Below, piece by piece: positions 992 to 58,866 of a stretch of DNA of 62,614 bases; the stretch's first letter is position 1; each line of letters opens with the position of its first letter. The notes below the pieces were generated by a model. That model worked only from the letters and a program-made list of their open reading frames with translations, was not told the origin of the DNA and made no database searches. A program made the translations under genes and the position numbers. Origin of the DNA: Lachnospiraceae bacterium (GTDB taxonomy: Bacteria; Bacillota; Clostridia; Lachnospirales; Bianqueaceae); contig JABUST010000218.1 in the NCBI GenBank assembly GCA_021442595.1, positions 1-62,614 of the forward strand. The letters are read 5' to 3'.

Positions 992-1813
992 TCATTTCCA
1001 GTGAGGACATCTATCCTCAAGTTCTGCTTCTGAAATCATTTCTCTTGTCTCTAACAATTTGCTTTCCATTTTTTTCAATTCCAGTAATATTTCTTCCAAA
1101 GTCGATACTCCTATTGGCGGATAAACCTTTTCTCTCAACAACTCGAAAACCAGCATGTCTATGATATTTGCACTACTGGATAACTGCTTTCCAAACGTCT
1201 TTATTTTTGAAGCATCACATTGCTTCACCAGCCATTGTCCCAGCAAATGCCTCCTGCAGGCCAAATCGTTTAATTTCCATGTCAAAATATCTGCTTCCGA
1301 CTTATAGCTGAACTGTCTGCTTTTTCGTCCCAAGTCCCGATTATGAAATGTCACATACTCACGAAAACACTTAATAGCTTCAAGCCCACTAACTTCACAA
1401 ATGCCATCTGGTTGCGATGTTTCTGTCAACTCTCTTCCAAATCTCTTAACAAACAGATACGGGTACTCTCCTGCATAGAGAGGAATATCGGTGGATTTTT
1501 GATAAACAGACATTTCAAATTTCATTTGCAGCCCGCGATACAATTCTTCTTTTGTGATGAGTCCCAATTCATGATTCCTCTCATATGGAACAAAGCCTTT
1601 TGAATGTCTGCGAAGCGAATCAAAAAAAACATATCGGTCCCCAGTCTTTTTCAACAAAGCAAAGATATGACTTGTTGCTTTTTCATCAAGCATTTCTCTG
1701 GAATCGGCATCTAAGTCTGAAAAAGGCATCACCGGAAATATCGTACTAATGTAGACCTCCATCCCTGAACTTAGGAAATCATTCATCAATCCATATTCCC
1801 GTAATATCTCCAT
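992..1813 (-). CDS. hypothetical soluble protein, last gene of the RiPP-like operon
   Basis: A 273-aa ORF in the low-GC island, co-directional with the preceding ORF and overlapping it by 35 nt. It has no TM segments and no motif I recognise. The start is uncertain; alternative ATGs lie at 1786 and 1762. Confidence 0.55.
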   Translation of the reverse strand: MEILREYGLMNDFLSSGMEVYISTIFPVMPFSDLDADSREMLDEKATSHIFALLKKTGDRYVFFDSLRRHSKGFVPYERNHELGLITKEELYRGLQMKFEMSVYQKSTDIPLYAGEYPYLFVKRFGRELTETSQPDGICEVSGLEAIKCFREYVTFHNRDLGRKSRQFSYKSEADILTWKLNDLACRRHLLGQWLVKQCDASKIKTFGKQLSSSANIIDMLVFELLREKVYPPIGVSTLEEILLELKKMESKLLETREMISEAELEDRCPHWK

Positions 1814-2132
1814 CCTTATTTATCTCGTCATAAACGCCTTTGTCCGGCCAAACAATAATAATATCATTTGGCTGGCTGCTTATCTCAAATCGGTTCTCCC
1901 ATAAAACACATTCAATACTTATTGCAATTCCCAGATCTGCAAAAGACTCTTTTATCCCCCAGTAGTACCAGGCATCTGGTTCGGAGGATGAAACTAAAAA
2001 TACTCTTTTTTTCTCTTGGCATACTTCGGCTTTAATGTTGATATTTTCTATAAACCCCAGTAAAGGAGGAGATGTTATCGTAAGGTCGGATACGGCACTA
2101 ATCATCTTTATATTCTGATTACTTTCTGACAT
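1779..2132 (-). CDS. hypothetical small soluble protein in the RiPP-like operon
   Basis: A 117-aa ORF whose start overlaps the end of the upstream ABC gene by 25 nt, suggesting translational coupling. No recognisable motif and no TM segment. Confidence 0.5.
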   Translation of the reverse strand: MSESNQNIKMISAVSDLTITSPPLLGFIENINIKAEVCQEKKRVFLVSSSEPDAWYYWGIKESFADLGIAISIECVLWENRFEISSQPNDIIIVWPDKGVYDEINKDGDITGIWIDE

Positions 2133-3751
2133 GCCGAAAGCACCTGCTCATCGTGAGATATTATAAAAACAATAGTTCCGGTTTTCGCATCGTCGGATAA
2201 AGTCTCAAGAACATCGTTCTTCATTTCTTTATCCAGAGCCGAGAGAGATTCATCAAAAATCCTTATCCTCGCTGTTTTTATCAGAGCCCTCATGATGGAT
2301 AACAATTGTAATTCTCCTCCGGACAGACCTGACTCTCCTTCTCCGAGAACGCGCTCCGTTCCTCCAAGCATACCGATCCATCGTTCAAAAAGAGGATTAT
2401 CGTTTCTTTCCGACATATCCATGTCCAACAACAAATTTTCTTCAATTGTTCCGCCAATCCAAAAGGCTTCCTGCCCCACATAGGATATCAATTCCTGAAA
2501 ATCTGTACGGGAATAGTCGGAAATCTGATTACCAAATACAGAAAGCTCTCCCTCAAACGGATACAATCCCATCAACAGTTTCATCAATGTGCTTTTTCCT
2601 TTGCCGCTTTCTCCGGAGACTCCGTACAGACCGGGACCGGCAACACGGAGATTGATGCCATTAAGAATATCTTCTTCCGCCTTGGGATATGAAAAGCACA
2701 GGTCCTTCACAATAATACTATTATCTGTTTGTACTGATCTCTGCTTTGAAATATCCTCTCTCTCCTGAGGAAGCTCCAGTATTTCAATTACCCTTTTTAC
2801 GCCCACCCAGGACTCTGCTAATGCTTTATATACGTCCCCAAAAGAAATCAATGTATTCACAACCATACCCATCATGGGCAAGGCTACAAGGATTTCCGGA
2901 ATTGAAATATTCCCTCTCGAAAACCAGACTGCGCATATTGCAAGCCCGATTCCATATTGGGTCACTAACGGAGCCTTCCCCAACAGTGTGATTATTGAAT
3001 CTAAGCTGTCTTTTTTTAGCTCCATATCCATACAGACTTGATTACGCTCATCAATTTTATCTTGCAAATACTCTTCATGCCCACAAAGAAGAACACTTTC
3101 TTTTTTCTCAAGGCAGACATCCAAAAACTTGGTAATCTCCGATTTTGCGATAGAAATTCTATTCCTGAGGACTTCTATTCGTTTTGTAATGAGAGACATA
3201 CCTCCTAAAAACAGCAGCCCTGTTATGAATGAAACTCCCACCAGCATTCCTGTCTGATCTATAAAAAACAAACTAACGGCAGCAAGGATGCCCGAGAATG
3301 CACTCATTATCGGGGATAACACCTGATATCGAAGCACCCCGTGCACAAGATCCAAATCATTGTTCACCCGGGAGATATAATCAGCACGATCCGTTTCTCT
3401 TCCCAAATATCTCATGTCTGCATTCACAACACAATGAGTCATGGTTTTCCTGGTATGAGTAATCAATTGATGTGCTATAACATGAAGAAAGTACTGAGAC
3501 AACGCATCAAAAACACAAAACAAAATAATAGCTGCAGTAAGAGCAATCCAGCCTGATGCATTCTCTCCCACACCTGTCCCTTCTATCACCTGTCCGGCAA
3601 TCTTCGAGGAAAAAAAAGCATTTAAAAAGACTATCCCAAAATTCCTTAAGGATACTCCGGTAAGTGCGGAAATGTATTTTGTTCCGTATTTTCTCCAGAT
3701 ATTCCTGCTTCGTCGGATGTCTGAAACCATAGTTTTAAATGTTGATAACAT
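2108..3751 (-). CDS. ABC transporter, fused permease/ATP-binding half-transporter
   Basis: Has an N-terminal TM domain, Walker A GESGKGKST, signature LSGGELQ and Walker B RIFDESLSALD. I moved the start to ATG 3751 (MLSTF...) because the RBS aaaggaggg sits just upstream. The ORF-track start is 3811. Confidence 0.85.
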   Translation of the reverse strand: MLSTFKTMVSDIRRSRNIWRKYGTKYISALTGVSLRNFGIVFLNAFFSSKIAGQVIEGTGVGENASGWIALTAAIILFCVFDALSQYFLHVIAHQLITHTRKTMTHCVVNADMRYLGRETDRADYISRVNNDLDLVHGVLRYQVLSPIMSAFSGILAAVSLFFIDQTGMLVGVSFITGLLFLGGMSLITKRIEVLRNRISIAKSEITKFLDVCLEKKESVLLCGHEEYLQDKIDERNQVCMDMELKKDSLDSIITLLGKAPLVTQYGIGLAICAVWFSRGNISIPEILVALPMMGMVVNTLISFGDVYKALAESWVGVKRVIEILELPQEREDISKQRSVQTDNSIIVKDLCFSYPKAEEDILNGINLRVAGPGLYGVSGESGKGKSTLMKLLMGLYPFEGELSVFGNQISDYSRTDFQELISYVGQEAFWIGGTIEENLLLDMDMSERNDNPLFERWIGMLGGTERVLGEGESGLSGGELQLLSIMRALIKTARIRIFDESLSALDKEMKNDVLETLSDDAKTGTIVFIISHDEQVLSACQKVIRI

Positions 3752-5339
3752 ATCCATCCCTCCTTTCCAGATTCTCATGCGAGATAATAACCACAATATT
3801 GTCCCTTGCAAGTTCTGATAAATGGCTTAAGATAGTTTCTTTATTGTCTCCTCCAAATGAAGAAAACGGCTCATCATATAGGAAAATAAAAGCATTTTCT
3901 TTCATCCAGCTTCTGGCTATTGACAGCCGTTTTCTCTGTCCGCCTGACAATGGTTTTCCATTACTGTATAATTCTGTATTCAGCCCCGCCTCCAGCTTGT
4001 TTACTTCATTCAGCAGTCCAACTTCCTCTAAGAATATCCTTGCCTTCTTTTCTCCCAGGTCTGTGTGAGGTGTTTCCACAAACAAATTACCCAGGATCGT
4101 ATCAGGATAGATCAGATCATCCTGCGGGCATACTGAAACCCGATGTATCCATTCGCTGCGTTCAAGATTCTTCAGATTAATGTCATCCAGCATGACGTCC
4201 CCTGAATAATTTTGAAGCGATTTAGTCAATACTTTAAATAATGTACTCTTCCCTTTTCCGTTTTTCCCCTGAAGGTAATTAATCTTTCCTTTCCTGAAAA
4301 CAACTTGATCTACGAACACCACCTTCCCGTTACTGTATTCAATCTTTAGGTTGCTGATGCTAATAACATCCGGGCAGGCCTCCAACCCGGAATAACCATA
4401 ATCCATATTATCTTTCTTTGTGTTCTTGAAAAGGCTTTCTGCCCTATTTAAGCTTGCTTTAGCTCTTTGAAAACTGCTGATAGTTCCATCTAATGTCATT
4501 ACAAAGTCTTCTACAATATCAACTGTAAAGATGGTCAGAAGAAGGTCTGCGGTAGAAATCAATCCTTTTGCACGCAGCACACCTGCCATTCCTGCCATAC
4601 AAATCATCACTACAAAGCTGAACAAACACATGGGTCCGGATATCCATGCTTCTTTGGCAGCGGCTGTTTTATCTGCCTGGTTCAGCGTCTTCAGTTTTTT
4701 GTCATAACTATCTTCCAAAAGCTTTCTGTTCCGAAGCATTTTCAGCATTTCTATATTTCTCAGCCACCTCCCCTCCTCGCATAGTACGAGGTCAAGGACT
4801 TCATAGTATCCCGCGTAATAACCCGGGAGTTTTTTCCCTAAGAACATCAGATACAAAAATACTACCCCTGAGCAAACCACCACTGTCATTCCAAGAATCA
4901 CATGTCTCGAAAACAGAACACAAAGCACCAAACAATAACAAACTAAATTCGGAAAGAAAACACCCCAGAATCTTCTGAAGAATTTCACCAAATTGCTTGT
5001 GTCTACCTGTATTTTATTAATACTCGCCTCTTCATCCTTATTCTCAGCGCTGTATTCCAGAAGTTCTCGCTCTATCCTACTTTGCATGCTCCAGGAAAAC
5101 TCTGTTGCCTGCCGAAGCATAAGTCTGTTGCTCAAATATGAAAAAACAATATATGCTGTCATTATGCCAAGCATTTTGAAAATCCATTCTGTCCAGGCAT
5201 TTTGAATAAATGCTTCTTCCATCCCGGAAGCTGATAACCTCCAGAGAATAGAACAGATTGCACTCATACATGTCACGAAGCATAAAATCAGGTTCTTCCG
5301 TTGGTTCCCCATATAGACCAATACACTGTTTTTTCTCAT
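3735..5339 (-). CDS. ABC transporter, fused permease/ATP-binding half-transporter
   Basis: A 534-aa protein with a TM domain, Walker A GKNGKGKST, signature LSGGQRKRLSIARS and Walker B FLYDEPFSSF. Its start overlaps the stop of the upstream gene by 4 nt (ATGA). Confidence 0.85.
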   Translation of the reverse strand: MRKNSVLVYMGNQRKNLILCFVTCMSAICSILWRLSASGMEEAFIQNAWTEWIFKMLGIMTAYIVFSYLSNRLMLRQATEFSWSMQSRIERELLEYSAENKDEEASINKIQVDTSNLVKFFRRFWGVFFPNLVCYCLVLCVLFSRHVILGMTVVVCSGVVFLYLMFLGKKLPGYYAGYYEVLDLVLCEEGRWLRNIEMLKMLRNRKLLEDSYDKKLKTLNQADKTAAAKEAWISGPMCLFSFVVMICMAGMAGVLRAKGLISTADLLLTIFTVDIVEDFVMTLDGTISSFQRAKASLNRAESLFKNTKKDNMDYGYSGLEACPDVISISNLKIEYSNGKVVFVDQVVFRKGKINYLQGKNGKGKSTLFKVLTKSLQNYSGDVMLDDINLKNLERSEWIHRVSVCPQDDLIYPDTILGNLFVETPHTDLGEKKARIFLEEVGLLNEVNKLEAGLNTELYSNGKPLSGGQRKRLSIARSWMKENAFIFLYDEPFSSFGGDNKETILSHLSELARDNIVVIISHENLERRDGYVINI

Positions 5340-6196
5340 AACAGATACTCCTTGAAAAACTCCGTTGTTTGGGGTTCAAGTCTAAACGATAATTCCCTTA
5401 CCGGAATTGTTTTTGAAATCGTCTGCAGCAAATCAACAGATGTCAGAAGATTCTCGGCATGTCCATATGGCAGAAGCGATATTGTTAAGAGTTTCCGGCA
5501 TGCTTCCTCCTTTGAATACTGTTGCAAGACGTTATCCTTGCCATGTTTTAGCAAGATTATTTCATAAAGCCTTTCTTTTTGATTTTTACACTCATGATTC
5601 TTTCTGTCAAATGGATTTCCGTATATCCAAAGTTGGCCCTCTTCTTGTCTTATGATAATCCTGTCATCTGTCAGGAGACTAAATTCCTTATGCTTAATCA
5701 ACATTTGAGAAAGTGTCGTCTTTCCAACCCCGGAGGATCCCGTCAAAACAATGGCCCTCCCTTCATGGATTACCGTTGCGCCATGCATAATAAACCCTTT
5801 TTTCTTTTTATTCAGTTCCTGTTGCAGAATAAACCCGGTCATAGCAATTGGCAGAATCTGTGGGAAATACTCCTCCTGTGTCACATATGTTGTATATATG
5901 TAATCCTCTTTCGTGAAGCAAATCAAACCGATGAAATGTTCATCCGGATGAAATACGGCTGTAATTCTATTCCCTTTCTCATGCCAAGTCCAAGCAGGCG
6001 TATGATAAATTGCTTCTCCTTTATCATCCAAATCTATGGCATCGTTGATGTGAAATATGTGATTTATAATATCCGTACTGCTATTTGATATCAAGAAGTT
6101 ACGAATGGTACTTTCCTCAATGTAATCCATCTCAAAATGATACAAATACGCAAAGGATATGCCTGCAATTTCAAAATGAACTTCCTTATCCACCAT
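5336..6196 (-). CDS. HPr kinase-like (HprK C-terminal domain-like) P-loop protein
   Basis: The segment HGATVIHEGRAIVLTGSSGVGKTTLSQMLI...LLTDDRIII resembles the HprK/P catalytic core (HG..v...G.gvLi.G.SG.GKS...L...LvaDD). About 140 aa at the N-terminus have no feature I recognise. It overlaps the rSAM gene by 11 nt. Confidence 0.7.
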   Translation of the reverse strand: MVDKEVHFEIAGISFAYLYHFEMDYIEESTIRNFLISNSSTDIINHIFHINDAIDLDDKGEAIYHTPAWTWHEKGNRITAVFHPDEHFIGLICFTKEDYIYTTYVTQEEYFPQILPIAMTGFILQQELNKKKKGFIMHGATVIHEGRAIVLTGSSGVGKTTLSQMLIKHKEFSLLTDDRIIIRQEEGQLWIYGNPFDRKNHECKNQKERLYEIILLKHGKDNVLQQYSKEEACRKLLTISLLPYGHAENLLTSVDLLQTISKTIPVRELSFRLEPQTTEFFKEYLL

Positions 6197-7238
6197 AGCT
6201 CACCTTCACCCCCTGTACATACTTTTTTAACTTTTGGGCATAGCTGCAGGCCCACTCCGGTGGATTTTTTGTGGACAGACCTTCTGCCTCAAACCGACCC
6301 GGACAATATCGACAAAACGGTCGTTCCTCACAATCATAACATTGATCTGCCGGCGTTAATGTCCCTTCTTTATACATTGCTAGAGCCTGGGCCGCCTGTT
6401 TCAATGATGTCTCTTCGGTGATTTGATATCCCGGTGTACGCACCGCAACACATAAACCTGCTCGCAAAGAAGCGTCGATAAATAGAGATGTTTCACCTGC
6501 ATCACAAGTATATTTTTCGTTAGTTCTATCCATCGGGATATTGCTGCGTAGTTTTTCAATATAATGCTCATTTTCGCACACCAACTTCACTGCTTCCAAA
6601 CTGCTTACCTGAAAGCTCTGCGAATTGACAGATGTTCTGTCTATGCAAGGAATCACTAATGTATCATATCGAAACGGCACATGATGTTGCTTGGAAAATT
6701 CCAAGTAATCGGATAGTCGTTCACTTTCTGTTGTAATTGTAGTCTTTAGGGTATAAGCTATATGGTTTTCATCTAACTGCTCCAGTACTCTTGAAAAATG
6801 ATCAAACGCCCCCTTCCGTTGGACAATTGCATCATATGCGTCCGCCGTCGTCCCATATAAGGTTATTTCCAGTGCATACGGAGGGTTTTTCTTCCACTCA
6901 TCAATCCATTTCTCAGAAATCAAAGAGCCATTTGTAAATACTGAAACAAAGGGAATCTTTTGTTTTGCGTATCTGTAAAACCAAAGAAACTCCGGATGAG
7001 ATAGTGGTTCTCCACCACTTAATGTAAGATAAAGAACTCCTTCCTGCTGCATCTTATCAACACACAGGGTAAACTTCTCCTTCGATATTACTTTTCCAAG
7101 ATCAGAATGGATATAGCAATACGGACAATCATAATTACACCGCTCTGTTACCTCAAGGTGCACATCAAGAATCTTGTGCTCGAAGTTCGCGTGTAGTAGT
7201 TCCCTAAATTCTCCTTTCCCCATGTTCCTATAAATCAT
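6186..7238 (-). CDS. radical SAM / SPASM-domain peptide-modifying enzyme
   Basis: The CNYDCPYC motif (C34-x3-C38-x2-C41) is a radical SAM cluster site. The C-terminal Cys-rich region CDAGETSLFIDASLRAGLC ... CYDCEERPFCRYC ... EWAC is SPASM-like with 7 Cys. A GGEPL motif is present. The RBS gggag lies 9 nt upstream of the ATG. Confidence 0.9.
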   Translation of the reverse strand: MIYRNMGKGEFRELLHANFEHKILDVHLEVTERCNYDCPYCYIHSDLGKVISKEKFTLCVDKMQQEGVLYLTLSGGEPLSHPEFLWFYRYAKQKIPFVSVFTNGSLISEKWIDEWKKNPPYALEITLYGTTADAYDAIVQRKGAFDHFSRVLEQLDENHIAYTLKTTITTESERLSDYLEFSKQHHVPFRYDTLVIPCIDRTSVNSQSFQVSSLEAVKLVCENEHYIEKLRSNIPMDRTNEKYTCDAGETSLFIDASLRAGLCVAVRTPGYQITEETSLKQAAQALAMYKEGTLTPADQCYDCEERPFCRYCPGRFEAEGLSTKNPPEWACSYAQKLKKYVQGVKVSYGG

Positions 7239-7300
7239 TGTTGATCACTCCCAGTTTTAATAAAGAGGTCAAAAATTCATTTATATCCTCCTCGGATAAG

Positions 7301-7321
7301 GTCTGCCCTTAGGGCAGACCT
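7301..7321 (-). promoter_or_regulatory. perfect stem-loop between the precursor ORF and the rSAM gene (attenuator or processing hairpin)
   Basis: On the minus strand, ggtctgccc-taa-gggcagacc forms a 9-bp GC-rich stem. It starts 10 nt after the peptide stop codon and has no following U-run. Confidence 0.6.
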
Positions 7322-7330
7322 TTGAACACT

Positions 7331-7435
7331 TCAACAAGATGATGGAACTGCTCGCCAACAGCCTAATGAAATTGTCTCATCTGCAACCAGTTCGATAATT
7401 TCTATGGTCGGCTTTTCATATACCTTTTTTTCCAT
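7331..7435 (-). CDS. candidate RiPP precursor peptide (34 aa), not in the ORF track
   Basis: My own translation of the minus strand gives atg gaa aaa aag gta tat ... tct tgt tga = MEKKVYEKPTIEIIELVADETISLGCWRAVPSSC. The RBS gaggagga ends about 10 nt upstream. The ORF lies directly upstream of the rSAM/SPASM gene. It has an acidic leader-like N-terminus and a Cys/Trp-containing C-terminus. Confidence 0.6.
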   Translation of the reverse strand: MEKKVYEKPTIEIIELVADETISLGCWRAVPSSC

Positions 7436-7461
7436 GAATCATGTTCCTCCTCTCTGAAAAA

Positions 7462-8274
7462 TTAACAATGACTATTATTGTCATCACTGTTTTTCCTTTT
7501 CCTGATGCTTTTATATAGATTCTCCCTCATATCAGATGTAAGCTCATCTTTGAGAATACAAAAAATCTGATTTGCTTTATCAAGATACCGTGAATCCTTT
7601 CGGATTTCATACAAAACCAGCAAATGCTTGATTATCGCCCATGAGACCGGATTTATAGAAGATGCTGCTATCTTTTCTTTGTCTTCCGGTGTCTGAGATA
7701 AAAACAACATGGCATTTTCTCGTGTTTTATAATACCCCGGTAACTTTACCGCATACTCCATAGCTTCTTGCATCCTTCCCAATTTTGCAAGCGAAAAGCA
7801 CAGATTGTATCGTGCACAATAAACCTGTTCAGGATCTTGAGATTCATTAATCACTATTTTCTGAAGCATTATGGATTCTTTTAGGTATTTCTCCGCTTCA
7901 ACCGTACCATCCCCCATGTATTCCAATGTTGCCGCAAGATACAAAAACAAGGCATAATCCTTCGGATGATTTTTAATCGCTTTACGAAGAAGGGCTTCAT
8001 TTTCCGCATGGAATCCCTTCTTATTGTTCTCCTCCCATGTGCATACTACACTGTTTATTTCATCAGCAGATGGATCTTCTATTCCAAGCAAATAATCTGT
8101 CGTAACTCCAAAATATCTGGCCAGAGCAATTATCATCTGCACGTCCGGAAAACCTTCACCTCTTTCCCACTTACTGATAACTTGAAAAGAACAGTTAACA
8201 ACCATCGCCAACTGCTCCTGTGTCATTTTTCTTTCTTTTCTAAGGTTTCGCAGCAATAAACCAAATTCAGACAT
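7462..8274 (-). CDS. XRE-family HTH transcriptional regulator with TPR-like C-terminal domain
   Basis: The N-terminal LRNLRKERKMTQEQLAMVVNCSFQVISKWERGEGFPDVQMIIALARYFGVTTDYLLG is a classic HTH_3 motif. About 200 aa of helical repeat-like sequence follow. The RBS ggaggga lies upstream. Confidence 0.8.
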   Translation of the reverse strand: MSEFGLLLRNLRKERKMTQEQLAMVVNCSFQVISKWERGEGFPDVQMIIALARYFGVTTDYLLGIEDPSADEINSVVCTWEENNKKGFHAENEALLRKAIKNHPKDYALFLYLAATLEYMGDGTVEAEKYLKESIMLQKIVINESQDPEQVYCARYNLCFSLAKLGRMQEAMEYAVKLPGYYKTRENAMLFLSQTPEDKEKIAASSINPVSWAIIKHLLVLYEIRKDSRYLDKANQIFCILKDELTSDMRENLYKSIRKRKNSDDNNSHC

Positions 8275-8382: not shown

Positions 8383-8826
8383 CTAAGAATGGAATTGTCC
8401 ATGTCCACCTCTGAGAAAGCCCAAAACACTCACCCTCTTCTTGCTAAATGGGGGAATCTGGTGAGAATACAGAGCGCACATCACTTCTTCCTCCCTGCAT
8501 AGATGCCTTTGTGAAAATCCGTGTCGTTTAAGAACATCCGCTAAAAAGCACGTATCCTTTTTATTGATCAACACATCAATATCTCCCGTATGCCGGCATC
8601 CTTCCTTTCCATAAGCAAGAACAGATAGTACCTCTCCCTTAATTATGGCATAGGGCTTGGCAAAATCTCGTTCCAAAATTGGAATCAGATAGTTGTATTG
8701 AATGGCAGAAGCCAATACTCGAATGTCATTCCATTGCATTTTCTTCAAATACTCGAACCAATTTTTCAATATAGTTACAGCTGCGTTTAAATCACGACAA
8801 CAATACCCTATGTGATGTAACTGCAT
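8383..8826 (-). pseudogene. possible truncated nucleotidyltransferase-family ORF (N-terminal part only)
   Basis: A 147-aa ORF containing KGEVLSVLAYG...RHTGDIDVLINKKD, reminiscent of the uncharacterised nucleotidyltransferase family. From memory, that family is usually more than 300 aa. Only about 100 nt remain before the next gene. Confidence 0.4.
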
Positions 8827-9023: not shown

Positions 9024-10394
9024 TCACATAGATGCCCTTGTAATATTCTTAATCCAATTGAATCTGTTAACCTTCACTGCGGCCACGATACACTTCAGCA
9101 GCTGGTCGCATTTCAGGCAGGCAAATACCACCCAGGCAGGGGCATCAAATACAAAAGCCGCCAGCAGCCCGGAGGGAATCAGCACACAGCATACAAATAT
9201 GGTGTCATTGATAAAAACAAAATTCGTCTGTCCACCCGCACGGACAATACCCGTCAAGGAGCTCATCTGGTAGGAGGTTCCCACCACCATTACCGTCAGC
9301 ACAGAAATCAGCTGGTTCACGATGACTGTCGTCTCACCGTTGATGGTAGGATACAGCGCCGGCACCAGATACCGGCTCAAATACATAAACACGGCAGTTC
9401 CCAATCCCATGGCCACAAACACAAGCTGCAGGGTCTTCGCATACTTTTTCACCAGTTCATAATCGCCGCTGCCCACCGTCTTTCCGATGATGATGCCGGT
9501 GGCGCTGGCCACTCCGTACACACCCACGGAAATCAAATTAAACAGGTTGTTGGCGATGCTCACTGCCGAGATAGCGCTCTGGCTCAGCCGCCCCAGAATA
9601 GCCGCCTGTCCGGTCATATTCAGCCCCCATACCGCTGACCCTGCAAAAATGGGCAGCCCGTACTTGATATAATCCTTCATCAGCACCCCGGAATGCCGCT
9701 TCAGGTCGCCGAACTTCATACGCAGCTTGGTATCCTTCTTCGCCGCAAACACGATGACGACGCAGCTTTCCACGATACGGCACAGCAGTGTGGAGACGGC
9801 AGCGCCGGCCACCCCCATGGCGGGAACCCCCAGCTTACCGAAAATGAAGACCCAGTTAAAGAAGATATTCAGCAGCACCGTAATCACAGACGTGTAGAGG
9901 GCGATGCCCACCGTCTCCACGCACTTCATGCTGGTCAGAACTACCTCCGTGACCACATAGAACAAATAGGAAAAGCATACGATCCTTAGATATCCGGTTC
10001 CTTCCCGAATGACCTCCTGCTCGTTGGTGTAGAGGCTCAGCAGCTGATTCGGAAAGAAAAATGCTGCGGCAAAAAAGCCCAGAGCCACCACCCCTGCAAA
10101 CCGGGCAGTCATGGCAGTGATGGTCTTGATGCTGTCCGTATCTTTTCTTCCCCAGTACTGAGCGGCCAGAACCAGCGCTGCGGTGCAGAAGCCCTGTATA
10201 AATTTCTGCAGCAGCGTCATCCACTGGTTGGCCACATAGACACCGGAAAGCGCCAGGTCACTGACACTTCCCACCATAATGTTGTCCGTCAGGCCCACCG
10301 CATAGACCAAAATATTCTGACCTGCCAGGGGCAGGGCCAGAGCAAAGAGCCGCTGATAAAACTTTTTGTCCTTGACTAACCAATCTGTTTTCAT
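9024..10394 (-). CDS. MATE family efflux transporter
   Basis: A 456-aa protein with 12 TM-like segments and a typical MATE N-terminus (FYQRLFALALPLAGQNILVYAVGLTDNIMVG). Confidence 0.9.
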   Translation of the reverse strand: MKTDWLVKDKKFYQRLFALALPLAGQNILVYAVGLTDNIMVGSVSDLALSGVYVANQWMTLLQKFIQGFCTAALVLAAQYWGRKDTDSIKTITAMTARFAGVVALGFFAAAFFFPNQLLSLYTNEQEVIREGTGYLRIVCFSYLFYVVTEVVLTSMKCVETVGIALYTSVITVLLNIFFNWVFIFGKLGVPAMGVAGAAVSTLLCRIVESCVVIVFAAKKDTKLRMKFGDLKRHSGVLMKDYIKYGLPIFAGSAVWGLNMTGQAAILGRLSQSAISAVSIANNLFNLISVGVYGVASATGIIIGKTVGSGDYELVKKYAKTLQLVFVAMGLGTAVFMYLSRYLVPALYPTINGETTVIVNQLISVLTVMVVGTSYQMSSLTGIVRAGGQTNFVFINDTIFVCCVLIPSGLLAAFVFDAPAWVVFACLKCDQLLKCIVAAVKVNRFNWIKNITRASM

Positions 10395-17448: not shown

Positions 17449-17523
17449 CGGGGTGTGGCTCAGTTTGGCTAGAGCGCGTGCTTTGGGAGCATGAGGCCGC
17501 AGGTTCGAATCCTGTCACCCCGA
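17449..17523 (+). tRNA. tRNA-Pro (anticodon TGG)
   Basis: Manual cloverleaf: acceptor cggggtg/caccccg, anticodon stem cgtgc/gcatg, loop ttTGGga, T-arm gcagg-ttcgaat-cctgt. Confidence 0.9.
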
Positions 17524-17583
17524 TCGCTTTGGTTCTTGCCCCAGGCAAATGCCTTTGGTAAATGCATCAGGCAAGTGAGTTCT

Positions 17584-17657
17584 GTGCCTGTAGCTCAGTT
17601 GGATAGAGCAACGGCCTTCTAAGCCGTGTGTCCTGGGTTCGAATCCCCGCAGGCACG
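17584..17657 (+). tRNA. tRNA-Arg (anticodon TCT)
   Basis: Acceptor gtgcctg/caggcac, anticodon stem acggc/gccgt, loop ctTCTaa, T-loop ttcgaat. There is one mismatch in the T-stem. Confidence 0.85.
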
Positions 17658-17795
17658 CTTCTTTGGCAGCTTCATTGCTGTTGAGGTTTTCACCGGACTG
17701 ATTTTCGTCCCGGAAATCTGTTTCAGTGCTGCTATCTTTAATGACAATGCTAACCTTGCATTGCTGTCCTTGATGGCATAATTTCATAGACTCAT

Positions 17796-17870
17796 GGTGG
17801 GTATGGTCCAGTTGGTTAGGGCGCCAGATTGTGGCTCTGGATATCCTGGGTTCGAGTCCCAGTACCCACC
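17796..17870 (+). tRNA. tRNA-His (anticodon GTG)
   Basis: An extra 5' G(-1) precedes the acceptor gtgggta/tacccac. Anticodon stem ccaga/tctgg, loop ttGTGgc, T-arm ctggg-ttcgagt-cccag. Confidence 0.9.
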
Positions 17871-17883
17871 CTCGTCTAACCCT

Positions 17884-17955
17884 TGGGTAGTCGCCAAGCG
17901 GTAAGGCACAGGGTTTTGATCCCTGCATGCGTAGGTTCGAATCCTACCTACCCAG
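17884..17955 (+). tRNA. tRNA-Gln (anticodon TTG)
   Basis: Acceptor tgggtag/ctaccca, anticodon stem caggg/ccctg, loop ttTTGat, T-arm gtagg-ttcgaat-cctac. Confidence 0.9.
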
Positions 17956-17991
17956 CTAGGTTCAAAACCGAAAGGAAAGAGAATATAATGC

Positions 17992-18020
17992 TTGACACCT
18001 GCAGGTGACGGTGTTATAAT
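17992..18020 (+). promoter_or_regulatory. internal sigma-A-type promoter ahead of tRNA-Lys
   Basis: TTGACA, 17 nt, TATAAT, within the Gln-Lys spacer. Confidence 0.55.
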
Positions 18021-18031
18021 CATTTTTCGTT

Positions 18032-18104
18032 GGGGCATTAGCTCAATTGGTAGAGCACCAGACTCTTAATCTGGGTGTTCGGGGTTCGAGACCCCGATGC
18101 CTCA
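18032..18104 (+). tRNA. tRNA-Lys (anticodon CTT)
   Basis: Acceptor ggggcat/atgcctc, anticodon stem ccaga/tctgg, loop ctCTTaa, T-arm cgggg-ttcgaga-ccccg. Confidence 0.9.
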
Positions 18105-47188: not shown

Positions 47189-47261
47189 GCGCCCGTAGCT
47201 CAGGGGATAGAGCGGCGGCTTCCGGAGCCGCGCGTCGGGGGTTCGAATCCTCTCGGGCGTA
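47189..47261 (+). tRNA. tRNA-Arg (anticodon CCG)
   Basis: Acceptor gcgcccg/cgggcgt, anticodon stem gcggc/gccgc, loop ttCCGga, T-loop ttcgaat. Confidence 0.9.
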
Positions 47262-48983: not shown

Positions 48984-49056
48984 GCGCCTGTAGCTCAGGG
49001 GATAGAGCAGTGGTTTCCTAAACCATGTGTCGGAGGTTCGATTCCTCTCAGGCGTA
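48984..49056 (+). tRNA. tRNA-Arg (anticodon CCT)
   Basis: Acceptor gcgcctg/caggcgt, anticodon stem gtggt/accat, loop ttCCTaa, T-arm ggagg-ttcgatt-cctct. Confidence 0.9.
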
Positions 49057-51451: not shown

Positions 51452-51539
51452 GCAGCGGTGGCGAAACTGGCAAACGCGCTAGACTAAGGATCTAGTGACT
51501 AATACATACGTCTTGCGGGTTCAAGTCCCGCCCGCTGCA
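51452..51539 (+). tRNA. type II tRNA, tRNA-Leu with apparent anticodon AAG
   Basis: Acceptor gcagcgg/ccgctgc with discriminator A. The perfect anticodon stem ctaga/tctag flanks the loop ctAAGga (anticodon at 51486-51488). The long variable arm is about 19 nt, and the T-arm is gcggg-ttcaagt-cccgc. A terminator follows. Confidence 0.8.
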
Positions 51540-57168: not shown

Positions 57169-58866
57169 ATGAAACTTACAGAGAACATCACTTATGTGTA
57201 TGACCATCTCATGAATTACGAGGAGATCCGCACCCGCCTGAACAGCTATGCCCTGGAGCATCCGGAGCTATGCCGGGTCAGCAGCGTAGGCAAGACCCGG
57301 GAGGGCCGGGACATCCTGGCCATTGAAGTGACCAACACCCTCACCGGTTCCTATGAGGACAAGCCTGCCCTGTACATGGAGGGCAACATCCACGCAGGAG
57401 AGATCACCGGCTGCATGTGCATCATGTACTGTCTGGATGTGATCTTCACCAACCTGCAGGAGGAGAAGATCCGGGAGATCCTGGATAAATACACCATTTA
57501 CTCCATTCCCCGGGTATCTCCCGACGGCTCCGAGCACTATCTCACCACCCCGGACATGGTCCGCAGCGTGAATACCCTGTATCCCTATGAGGAGGACATG
57601 CCCGGTCTGGTTCCTGCGGATCTGGATGGTGACGGAGTCATCCGTAAGATGCGTGTCCGGAGTCCCTACGGTATCTGGAAGGAGTCCGAGGCAGATCCCA
57701 GAGTCATGACAAAGCGGCAGCCCGACGAAACGGAAGGCGTCTTCTATAACGTATACTCCGAGGGCTATATCAACGATTATGACGGGGTCAACATCGTAAG
57801 TGCTCCCGGTAAATTCGGCAGTGACTTTAACAGGAACTATCCCATCGGATGGAAGCCGGAGCATCAGCAAAGAGGAGCCGGAGATTATCCTCTGTCCCAT
57901 CCGGAGACCAGAGCCAACACGGATTTCCTCCTGGCTCACTCCAACATCTGCGCAGTGCTGGACATGCACACCATGGGCGGCCAGAATCTGTACACCCCCG
58001 GCTTCAAGCCTGCCAAGGAAGCTGAGCGCCAGGACATCGCCATTTATAAAGCCCTGGGCAAGATGGCCAAGGAGGAGAACGGCTATCCGGTCATCAATGT
58101 GTTCGACGAGTACATGCCTGCAGGCTCCCCTGCCTGCTTCGGCGGTTTTGACGATTTCGCCCACTTCATTCTGGGAGTTCCCGCCTTTACCATCGAGTGC
58201 TGGGATCTGGATCCCAGAGCAGGAGTGCCGGTGCAGTTCCCACCTAAGGCTGTCACTACCGATGAGGAGCAGGAAGAGCATGCCCTGAAATATGTGCAGT
58301 GGATCGACAAAGAGAACGACGGTGAGGGCATCACCACCTGGACCCGGTTCGACCATCCCCAGCTGGGAGAAGTGGAGATCGGCGGTATCGACTACAAGCA
58401 TGTGGTCCAGAATCCCCCTCCGAAGTTCCTGCCCCAGGAGCTGGAGAAGCACACCCGCTTCATGCTGCGTCTCATTAAGACCCTGCCCCAGGTAAGCTTC
58501 CGGAAGGTAACCTGCGAAAGGCTCTCCGGTGATGTGTTCAAGGTGGATGCCTACCTCATGAATACCGGCTTCCTTCCCACCTACGTATTTAAGGAGGGCC
58601 TGAAGCTGAAGAAGCTGAAGCCTCTGAAGGTGAATATCAGCGGCATGAGCGCCATGCTGGAAGGCAAGGAAACCACAGAGATCGGTCAGCTGGAGGGCTT
58701 CAGCGGTCTGGGCGGCTTTAACAGCGGCCTGGGAGCCGGCACCTTCCAGACAGATCCCCTGGAAAAGAAGATCACCTGGATCATCCGGGCAGAAGAAGGG
58801 GCAGAGCTGAAGATCCGTGTCAGCGGCGGCCGCATCGGACAGGTGGAGACCTCCGTAACTGTATGA
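57169..58866 (+). CDS. M14-family metallocarboxypeptidase-like protein
   Basis: Contains GNIHAGEITG (the HxxE zinc site), NRNYP and DMHT. About 565 aa. I moved the start to ATG 57169. Confidence 0.75.
   Translation: MKLTENITYVYDHLMNYEEIRTRLNSYALEHPELCRVSSVGKTREGRDILAIEVTNTLTGSYEDKPALYMEGNIHAGEITGCMCIMYCLDVIFTNLQEEKIREILDKYTIYSIPRVSPDGSEHYLTTPDMVRSVNTLYPYEEDMPGLVPADLDGDGVIRKMRVRSPYGIWKESEADPRVMTKRQPDETEGVFYNVYSEGYINDYDGVNIVSAPGKFGSDFNRNYPIGWKPEHQQRGAGDYPLSHPETRANTDFLLAHSNICAVLDMHTMGGQNLYTPGFKPAKEAERQDIAIYKALGKMAKEENGYPVINVFDEYMPAGSPACFGGFDDFAHFILGVPAFTIECWDLDPRAGVPVQFPPKAVTTDEEQEEHALKYVQWIDKENDGEGITTWTRFDHPQLGEVEIGGIDYKHVVQNPPPKFLPQELEKHTRFMLRLIKTLPQVSFRKVTCERLSGDVFKVDAYLMNTGFLPTYVFKEGLKLKKLKPLKVNISGMSAMLEGKETTEIGQLEGFSGLGGFNSGLGAGTFQTDPLEKKITWIIRAEEGAELKIRVSGGRIGQVETSVTV

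Follow-up and report, generated by a model that had tools for sequence, protein, structure and literature searches.

The sequence analysed here is a 62.6-kb stretch of Lachnospiraceae DNA (contig JABUST010000218.1), hereafter the window, and all coordinates refer to it. Between a regulator gene and a radical S-adenosylmethionine (rSAM) enzyme gene it contains a short open reading frame (ORF) of 34 codons, a candidate precursor of a peptide that is made by the ribosome and modified after its translation (RiPP); the genes of the cluster lie on the minus strand. The ORF and the features attached to it are as follows.

7331..7435, minus strand: candidate gene for the precursor peptide, 34 codons followed by a stop, MEKKVYEKPTIEIIELVADETISLGCWRAVPSSC, identified by its translation, its positional homologues and proportions of nonsynonymous (pN) and synonymous (pS) differences of 0.09–0.29 and 0.82–0.96, respectively
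7445..7452, minus strand: Shine-Dalgarno sequence GAGGAGGA, 9 nt before the ATG, read from the sequence
7361..7435, minus strand: putative leader, residues 1–25, with the motif Y6-E-K-P9 and the conserved ELVADETISLG; predicted boundary
7334..7360, minus strand: putative core CWRAVPSSC, residues 26–34, with Cys26, Trp27, Ser and Cys34, from alignments
7298..7322, minus strand: hairpin, a perfect stem of 11 bp closed by a 3-nt loop, AAGGTCTGCCC-taa-GGGCAGACCTT, just past the precursor stop

The first-pass annotation had singled out this ORF as the likely precursor peptide, and its 34-aa translation matched the minus strand exactly from 7435 to 7331. The strong ribosome-binding site (RBS) that it had placed about 10 nt upstream of the ATG is present at 9 nt, and strong RBS sequences were also found in relatives. 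Its distances to the neighbouring genes required correction, the gap being 26 nt instead of 27 nt to the stop of the regulator gene (7462–8274) and 92 nt instead of 93 nt to the ATG of the rSAM gene (7238), while the hairpin following the ORF is indeed perfect but has a stem of 11 bp, not 9 bp. The N-terminus of the translated peptide is acidic and charged and contains no hydrophobic segment that could serve as an export signal, and no Pfam or NCBIfam model matched the 34-aa sequence.

Conservation immediately upstream of homologous rSAM genes had been set beforehand as a test of the precursor reading, and its outcome was positive. We compared the window with eight other loci (L001/L002, L091, and L192 to L197), which together with it make up a core family of nine; six of the eight (L192 to L197) were chosen through the rSAM enzyme alone, without use of the peptide. 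A homologous ORF of 31–39 aa was located upstream of the rSAM gene at all eight, including a previously uncalled ORF at L194, which supports the first-pass assignment of the peptide. At each of the six enzyme-selected loci, genes for a PqqD protein, the rSAM enzyme and a ScmC-like protein are preceded by the 31–39-aa ORF, and the six peptides read MKKEYTKPELIVVEIVADETISLSCWNTAPSGC; MKYEKPELIKVVVVPGETISLGCWRSAPSSC; ..RVYEKPVLLRIELVPGETISLQCWNSTPSTGC; MDKYEKATFEYIELIPDEVVALGCWNCGGSSGGSC; MEMMVYEKPEVTEIKIVADETISLSCWQSAPSGC; MEKYEKPIFEHIELIPDEVVALGCWNCGGSSGGSC. The P0002 contig (L001/L002) showed the order regulator, 37-aa ORF MKVRQKKKYKKPSVGTVKLQPEETISLGCWRGAPSTC, hairpin and T-tract, PqqD, rSAM, ScmC-like and ABC, and L091, whose peptide is P0027 (MKKEYTKPVITLVELVADETISLGCWNVAPSGC), showed the order peptide, hairpin, PqqD, rSAM and ScmC-like.

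The peptides are 54–69% identical where the rSAM enzymes are 28–44% identical; between the window and L091, the values are 69% for the peptide, 28% for the rSAM enzyme and 33% for the kinase-like protein. Among the three closest peptide genes, pS was 0.82–0.96 (saturated), and pN was 0.23–0.29 overall and 0.09–0.22 in the core, with exactly 29 residues from YxKP to the C-terminus in all three closest members. This substitution pattern indicates that the precursor peptide gene is under purifying selection. Taken together, positional and sequence conservation argue that the ORF is a real gene and the cognate precursor of the adjacent enzymes.

Alignment of the core family revealed a common pattern of YxKP (once K-A), about 10 residues, E-[TV]-[IV]-[SA]-L-[GSQ]-C-W, 6–9 variable residues including Ser, and a final Cys. 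Invariance across all sequences aligned was limited to two positions, the internal and the terminal Cys; Trp27 did not vary in the core family and hardly did so in the NDGDGC group described below. A Ser stands 1–3 residues before the last Cys, and every ScmC-type precursor has a Ser close to its C-terminal Cys. Of the C-terminal residues listed earlier as cross-link candidates, Cys26, Trp27, Ser and Cys34 are conserved and Arg28 is not; an Arg-based cross-link was rejected as unlikely because position 28 varies among R, N and Q. The residue before Cys-Trp is always small or polar (G/S/Q), and this, together with the S24/S26-like peptidase encoded in relatives, makes cleavage directly before Cys26 possible without a GG/GA motif.

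The 51-nt segment containing the hairpin showed a folding energy of −23.3 kcal/mol (z = −4.55), and 0 of 200 shuffled sequences folded as well. The stem is not followed by a T-tract, which is why the terminator scan did not flag it as an intrinsic terminator; it is probably a transcript-stabilising or attenuating stem-loop. Comparable stable hairpins are located 3' of the precursor gene in L002, L091, L193 and L197, with U-rich tracts behind those of L002 and L091, and these hairpins fit an attenuator that holds the precursor mRNA in excess. An Rfam scan revealed no RNA family near the ORF.

Besides the peptide, the conserved set at these loci consists of three predicted proteins: a PqqD-type recognition protein, a SPASM rSAM enzyme and a P-loop protein of HPr-kinase-like type. 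In most relatives, an S24-like peptidase and a pair of ABC exporters are encoded as well. The corresponding genes of the window, read on the minus strand, follow the order PF14907 stub, regulator, peptide and hairpin, rSAM, kinase-like, two ABC genes and two family-less ORFs, and their coordinates are given below.

8383..8826, minus strand: PF14907 nucleotidyltransferase stub, 147 aa, corresponding to residues ~32–103 of 303-aa homologues
7462..8274, minus strand: XRE-type helix-turn-helix (HTH) regulator of 270 aa whose C-terminal domain is TPR-like, encoded immediately upstream of the peptide
7231..7308, minus strand: remnant of a PqqD-type RiPP recognition element (RRE) gene, a 26-codon open frame, GQTLSEEDINEFLTSLLKLGVINNDL, with no start codon
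6186..7238, minus strand: radical SAM/SPASM peptide maturase, 350 aa, PF04055 at 63.4 bits, CxxxCxxC at C34/C38/C41, no fused RRE
5336..6196, minus strand: ScmC/HPr-kinase-like P-loop protein, 286 aa, with weak HprK_rel_A/B and Hpr_kinase_C matches
3735..5339, minus strand: ABC exporter half-transporter 1, 534 aa, from library matches, no peptidase domain
2108..3811, minus strand: ABC exporter half-transporter 2, maximal ORF, true start probably a downstream ATG

In the rSAM alignments, C34, C38 and C41 of the CxxxCxxC motif were invariant, as were the C-terminal Cys residues C245, C263, C300, C303, C309, C312 and C331 across 14 homologues, in a pattern typical of SPASM domains; Pfam PF13186 gave no match to the window enzyme. 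The enzyme reached no NCBIfam equivalog cut-off, its best score being 65 bits against 515 for NirJ, and searches of Pfam, NCBIfam and PDB sequences placed it in no characterised subfamily. Its AlphaFold (AF2) model (pLDDT 82) was nearest to the folds of SkfB, CteB and SuiB (TM about 0.65–0.70), followed by anSME and TigE. In the kinase-like protein, the motifs HG, GxSGxGK[ST]T, DDR and GNPFD were kept in 11 of 11 homologues, the window protein included, with H138, G156, G158, K159, T161 and D178 invariant across them; the window copy has an intact GSSGVGKTT, and the proteins of the relatives match Pfam PF27840 ScmC. The regulator has a 43% identical orthologue at the same position in L001. Genes of ~150 aa that follow in relatives match Peptidase_S24/S26 (PF00717/PF10502), which makes them candidate leader peptidases.

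The window copy differs from its relatives in gene content. A PqqD gene is located between the peptide and rSAM genes at all eight other core-family loci, and the window has no intact copy; tblastn, profile and family searches found no further PqqD in the 62.6 kb. What remains is the 26-codon frame listed above, in the 92-nt gap, whose stop (7228–7230) overlaps the rSAM start as in intact PqqD genes. This frame was the best tblastn match of the L002 PqqD in the whole window (7287–7243, PqqD residues 77–91), and a PqqD profile built from nine members ranked it first of 2,422 six-frame segments (E 0.036), which indicates that a deletion removed the RRE gene except for its last ~26 codons. The left breakpoint of this deletion abuts the hairpin, which would account for the missing U-tract. 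A "second RBS plus 2-codon ORF" past the hairpin was rejected, the stretch being the Glu-Glu-Asp coding remnant of PqqD. The 62.6 kb likewise contains no S24-like peptidase. Four metagenome contigs from other samples were 99.7–100% identical over the region with the same layout, and such independent recovery argues for a real genotype rather than an assembly error. In the window genome, maturation may be RRE-independent and inefficient, may be helped in trans from beyond the window, or may already have been lost.

An exhaustive HMMER search with the rSAM enzyme alone returned 148 cluster representatives at E ≤ 1e-30, and the rSAM family profile showed a clear score break after 13 clusters; the core enzyme family amounts to about 13 clusters at 90% identity among 5.8 billion proteins. 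A word-indexed protein search with the same enzyme found a single close relative, P0002, at 44% identity, and the exhaustive search indicates that this count reflects a limit of sensitivity, not true rarity at the 30–45% level. The peptide-family profile, headed by a 71-aa family member, retrieved 20 called peptides from the 5.8 billion proteins, P0027 among them. In a scan of species-representative genomes, a set to which the genome of the window does not belong, the matches below ~30% identity were mostly an actinomycete rSAM family. A back-translated ETISLGCW pattern run against metagenomes matched 98 stretches and 0 true family members. Six unrelated environmental contigs (L154, L155, L159, L171, L177 and L189) carry a recurrent 19-residue stop-to-stop segment, ..CDVGTETISLGCW followed by a stop, without a YxKP leader or terminal Cys; it is probably a conserved non-peptide sequence that matches the degenerate pattern by chance.

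Beyond the closest members, several variants were distinguished. L195 and L197 have a distinct core, CWNCGGSSGGSC, and a B12-binding rSAM enzyme in addition. In more distant subfamilies, which retain the core-family pattern in part, the precursors of L008 to L010 read M[VI]YEKPEIKVVTINLEETPIMFACGNCNNSSQAGPNC and that of L007 reads ..VYTQP..SGCWQIANQQDTC. A larger, gut-associated sister group has 65–95-aa precursors ending in ..[IV][FYV]MGCWQQSY..NDGDGC, many with G[SN]LALK further upstream, and encodes an RRE-rSAM fusion (~414 aa) and a GNAT protein in place of the kinase-like gene (L190/L191 5001–6980; P0010–P0029, L006, L011). This NDGDGC sister family appears to be undescribed; for its member P0025, the index of the assembly collection gives 41 blocks, Hadza gut metagenomes among them. 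Decayed sister-family copies occur in Bacilli/Erysipelotrichaceae metagenome-assembled genomes of very low GC content (20–22%), with an in-frame TAA inside the precursor in L011 (5528–5689) and an rSAM gene broken into fragments in L066 (5998–6864). Genetic code 4 was considered for these interrupted frames and rejected, the interrupting codon of L011 being TAA.

The cluster is located in a block at ~1–9 kb with a GC content of 0.39–0.42, against 0.49–0.57 in the flanks, bounded roughly by a 196-aa membrane protein gene (382–972) and a MATE-like gene (9024–10394). The low GC content of the whole cluster gives it the look of a horizontally acquired island and is consistent with acquisition as a block. 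Full-length PF14907 genes are present in the L008/L010, L193 and L194 clusters, and the same stub as in the window was found in the independent contig L088; a promoter-like site for the regulator (TGGACA-16-TAGAAT, 8407–8380) lies inside the 3' end of the stub. Past the ABC genes, ORFs of 117 aa and 273 aa (992–2132, minus strand) matched neither Pfam nor NCBIfam and have no counterpart in the related loci. The extras of the relatives are variable and include a second, HemN-like rSAM enzyme, a formyltransferase, a B12-rSAM enzyme, carrier proteins and the full-length PF14907 enzyme. The HemN-like gene is located just upstream of the precursor in L091 (110–1791), L192 (2806–4454) and L196 (2668–4328), accompanied by a formyltransferase in L192 and L196 and by a NusG-like antiterminator in L091. 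Genes of agr type (AgrB, a 55-aa AgrD-like ORF, a LytTR response regulator and a HATPase_c_5 kinase) adjoin the L192 (1–1841) and L197 (1–2905) clusters, which hints that quorum sensing has a part in control in these hosts. Rfam matched nothing in the window other than eight tRNA genes (17449–18104, 47189–47261, 48984–49056 and 51452–51539), five of them clustered at 17.4–18.1 kb.

Our preferred reading, to which we give a probability of about 80%, is that the 34-codon ORF encodes the precursor of a rare, uncharacterised family of radical-SAM-modified RiPPs, for whose complete clusters we propose the following maturation pathway. By analogy with lasso peptide and PQQ systems, PqqD would bind the leader through YxKP and present the core to the rSAM enzyme; consistent with such binding, the leader of one relative showed weak N-terminal similarity to lasso and RaS-RiPP leader models. 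The SPASM enzyme would then abstract a hydrogen atom and form an intramolecular cross-link at Cys26-Trp27 and/or Cys34, a thioether or an aromatic C–C/C–S link, with a loss of 2 Da each. The HprK-like protein, by analogy with its characterised counterparts, would transfer phosphate from ATP to the conserved Ser close to the C-terminus, after which the S24-like peptidase would cut off the leader, possibly just before Cys26, to leave the ~9-residue CWRAVPSSC, and the ABC pair would export the product. The hairpin 3' of the precursor gene would raise the ratio of precursor to enzyme transcript. Cys/Trp cross-linking combined with Ser phosphorylation is the chemistry that we infer.

Several points weigh against this pathway. 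The modification chemistry is deduced entirely from sequence, and because the rSAM enzyme scores below the cut-off of all characterised families, the link could be either a thioether or a C–C bond. With scores far short of those required by the curated kinase models, the HprK-like protein could have a role other than Ser phosphorylation. The L008–L010 subfamily has no Trp, and the NDGDGC subfamily has a GNAT protein instead of the kinase-like gene, so the two Cys residues may be all that takes part in the conserved chemistry. Lastly, without an RRE and a peptidase, the peptide may not be matured in the window genome.

This last point is the basis of an alternative that we regard as a real possibility, though short of even odds: the peptide would be a true precursor by descent in a cluster that has been in decay since its horizontal acquisition and has ceased to give a mature product, its intact ORFs reflecting the recency of decay and not selection. 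The window is the only one of the nine core-family loci without PqqD, it has no S24-like peptidase, its PF14907 gene is truncated, the U-tract of its hairpin was also removed by the deletion, and the locus sits in a low-GC island; clearly decayed copies exist elsewhere, as in the L011 peptide with its TAA and the broken L066 rSAM gene. However, the genes for the peptide, the rSAM enzyme (with all invariant Cys), the kinase-like protein (with all motifs), both ABC proteins and the regulator are uninterrupted, with all invariant enzyme residues present, and the genotype is stable across four additional samples. Some rSAM RiPP enzymes, moreover, work without an RRE, as DarE of darobactin does, and a PqqD or protease could be encoded beyond the 62-kb window.

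Quite unlikely, in our judgement, is that the ORF encodes, with or without rSAM modification, the cognate pheromone of the neighbouring HTH-TPR (RRNPP-like) regulator, which would make the cluster a module for quorum sensing instead of an antimicrobial one. Located 26 nt downstream of the 270-aa regulator gene and co-oriented with it, the peptide gene shows the classic arrangement of receptor and propeptide, with the same adjacency in L001/L002; the predicted product is short (about 9 aa), and agr-type quorum-sensing genes flank L192 and L197. Yet the seven remaining core-family loci, where the enzyme trio is always present, have no such regulator, and the regulator matches neither the Rgg nor the PlcR models; the peptide has no hydrophobic export signal, and dedicated ABC exporters and tailoring enzymes would suit a secreted natural product equally well. 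Such a role concerns biological function and does not contradict the precursor assignment. Finally, there is next to no likelihood that the ORF arose by chance between two genes and that the true substrate has its gene elsewhere: the ORF is short and has no Pfam or NCBIfam match, but its position, frame, length and sequence are conserved where the enzymes are only 28–45% identical, its core substitutions are almost all synonymous, the window offers no convincing alternative ORF of precursor type (the sole other filter match being an unrelated 20-aa frame at 57278–57340), and the conservation data already speak against it.

With the ORF taken as a precursor, the results give solid grounds for a rare, previously undescribed RiPP family of which the window holds an atypical, reduced copy. 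None of the curated peptide models, including those of Pfam and NCBIfam, matches the precursor family, and the searchable literature yielded nothing relevant on the motif strings, on ScmC/SynChlorMet or on the combination of an rSAM enzyme with an HPr kinase; we know of no characterised radical SAM RiPP pathway that uses an HPr-kinase-like partner. Nine distinct precursors, in which leader and core stand out clearly, define the family from sequence alone, along with an invariant Cys-Trp, a Cys at the end and a fixed set of three maturation proteins; it would be a reasonable place to look for a new cross-link. A bolder proposal, which we consider rather unlikely, is that the trio of free RRE, SPASM rSAM enzyme and HPr-kinase-like ATPase installs a cross-link type new to bacterial RiPPs, either a Cys-Trp (tryptathionine-like) link or a phosphorylation-assisted Ser/Cys link plus a radical cross-link. 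If so, the product would be a compact peptide of ~9 residues bounded by N- and C-terminal Cys that might also be the ligand of the HTH-TPR regulator, and the window locus, with neither RRE nor peptidase, would be a minimal version provided by nature, from which the steps that depend on leader recognition could be read. It is also apparent from the window locus that clusters of this kind can outlast the loss of the recognition element and leader peptidase, and genome-mining pipelines that depend on an RRE would miss the window copy.

Compared with known systems, the predicted system appears to work like sactipeptide, ranthipeptide and streptide pathways, yet it falls outside every family for which a specific membership test could be run. 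It resembles the sactipeptide and ranthipeptide systems (CteA/CteB thermocellin, SkfA/SkfB, AlbA/subtilosin, PapA/PapB freyrasin and SCIFF) in a short precursor beside a SPASM/twitch rSAM enzyme, a PqqD-like RRE for the leader, Cys in the core and dedicated ABC export, with a fold nearest to SkfB and CteB. Against the sactipeptide models, the window enzyme scored 48.9 of 850 bits for AlbA and 45.7 of 625 bits for StsB; against the ranthipeptide and SCIFF type, it scored 43 of 340 bits for PapB, and the core CWRAVPSSC has two Cys, no Asp/Glu and no CxxxD/E repeats. Unlike those systems, the RRE is a separate protein in the relatives and absent in the window, and the family has a terminal Cys, an invariant Trp and a universal HprK-like partner, the last of which those systems do not have. 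The window enzyme also lacks the N-terminal recognition domain of CteB and SuiB.

Streptide-type systems (SuiA/SuiB and StrA/StrB, also WgkB and WprB) share a SPASM enzyme whose substrate is a short core in which a Trp is essential; the highest TM-score to the predicted fold of the window enzyme was that of SuiB (about 0.70), and the cluster stands beside an HTH regulator, as in the str operon, which is under shp/rgg control. In contrast to streptide (KxxxW), the core contains no Lys and its Arg is not conserved, the score for WgkB was 39 of 650 bits, streptide precursors do not have the two invariant Cys, and SuiB has a fused N-terminal RRE where the 350-aa window enzyme has none. Propeptide-receptor adjacency as in RRNPP pairs was found in the window and L001/L002 and is absent at the other seven core-family loci, and the peptide carries no export signal of that type.

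The SynChlorMet (SCM) cassette (ScmC, a PqqD-like protein and ScmE/ScmF) is alike in combining an HprK-like ScmC, a PqqD-family protein and SPASM rSAM enzyme(s); to our knowledge, it has been defined bioinformatically, and its product and chemistry are uncharacterised. The window proteins scored below its models (15.3 of 125 bits for TIGR04249 ScmC and 38.8 of 400 bits for TIGR04250 ScmE), PF27840 matches occurred in the relatives only, and the present family has one core rSAM enzyme instead of two and occurs in different taxa. The tailoring module of lasso peptides (paeninodin and pseudomycoidin; PadeK/PsmK and PsmN) has the same accessory pair of HprK-like and PF14907 proteins beside a PqqD-type RRE and ABC exporters, and the leader here carries a lasso-like YxxP motif. 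In paeninodin and pseudomycoidin, the HprK-like kinase phosphorylates a precursor Ser and the PF14907 enzyme adds a hexose to the phosphate (PMC8498205). The window cluster has no lasso cyclase and no B2 protease, its class-defining enzyme is a radical SAM protein, and its PF14907 gene is truncated. The catalytic core of PadeK-type kinases, HG, Walker A GxSGxGK[ST] and DDR, is present and invariant or nearly so in 11 homologues, but the C-terminal Ser substrate is not, the last residue being Cys in every member with Ser 1–3 residues upstream.

PqqA/PqqD/PqqE offers the same three-part delivery system of a small peptide, a free-standing PqqD and a SPASM rSAM enzyme, and differs in that the window enzyme scored 40.6 of 381 bits for PqqE, the core contains no Glu/Tyr pair, the product would be a peptide and not a cofactor, and PqqD is deleted in the window. 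Measured against RaS-RiPP systems in general, the PqqD-like RRE, a common but not obligatory feature, is present in all eight relatives and reduced in the window to the 26-codon remnant, whereas the CxxxCxxC motif, the SPASM/twitch Cys residues and an adjacent, co-conserved precursor are all present, the last at nine of nine core-family loci.

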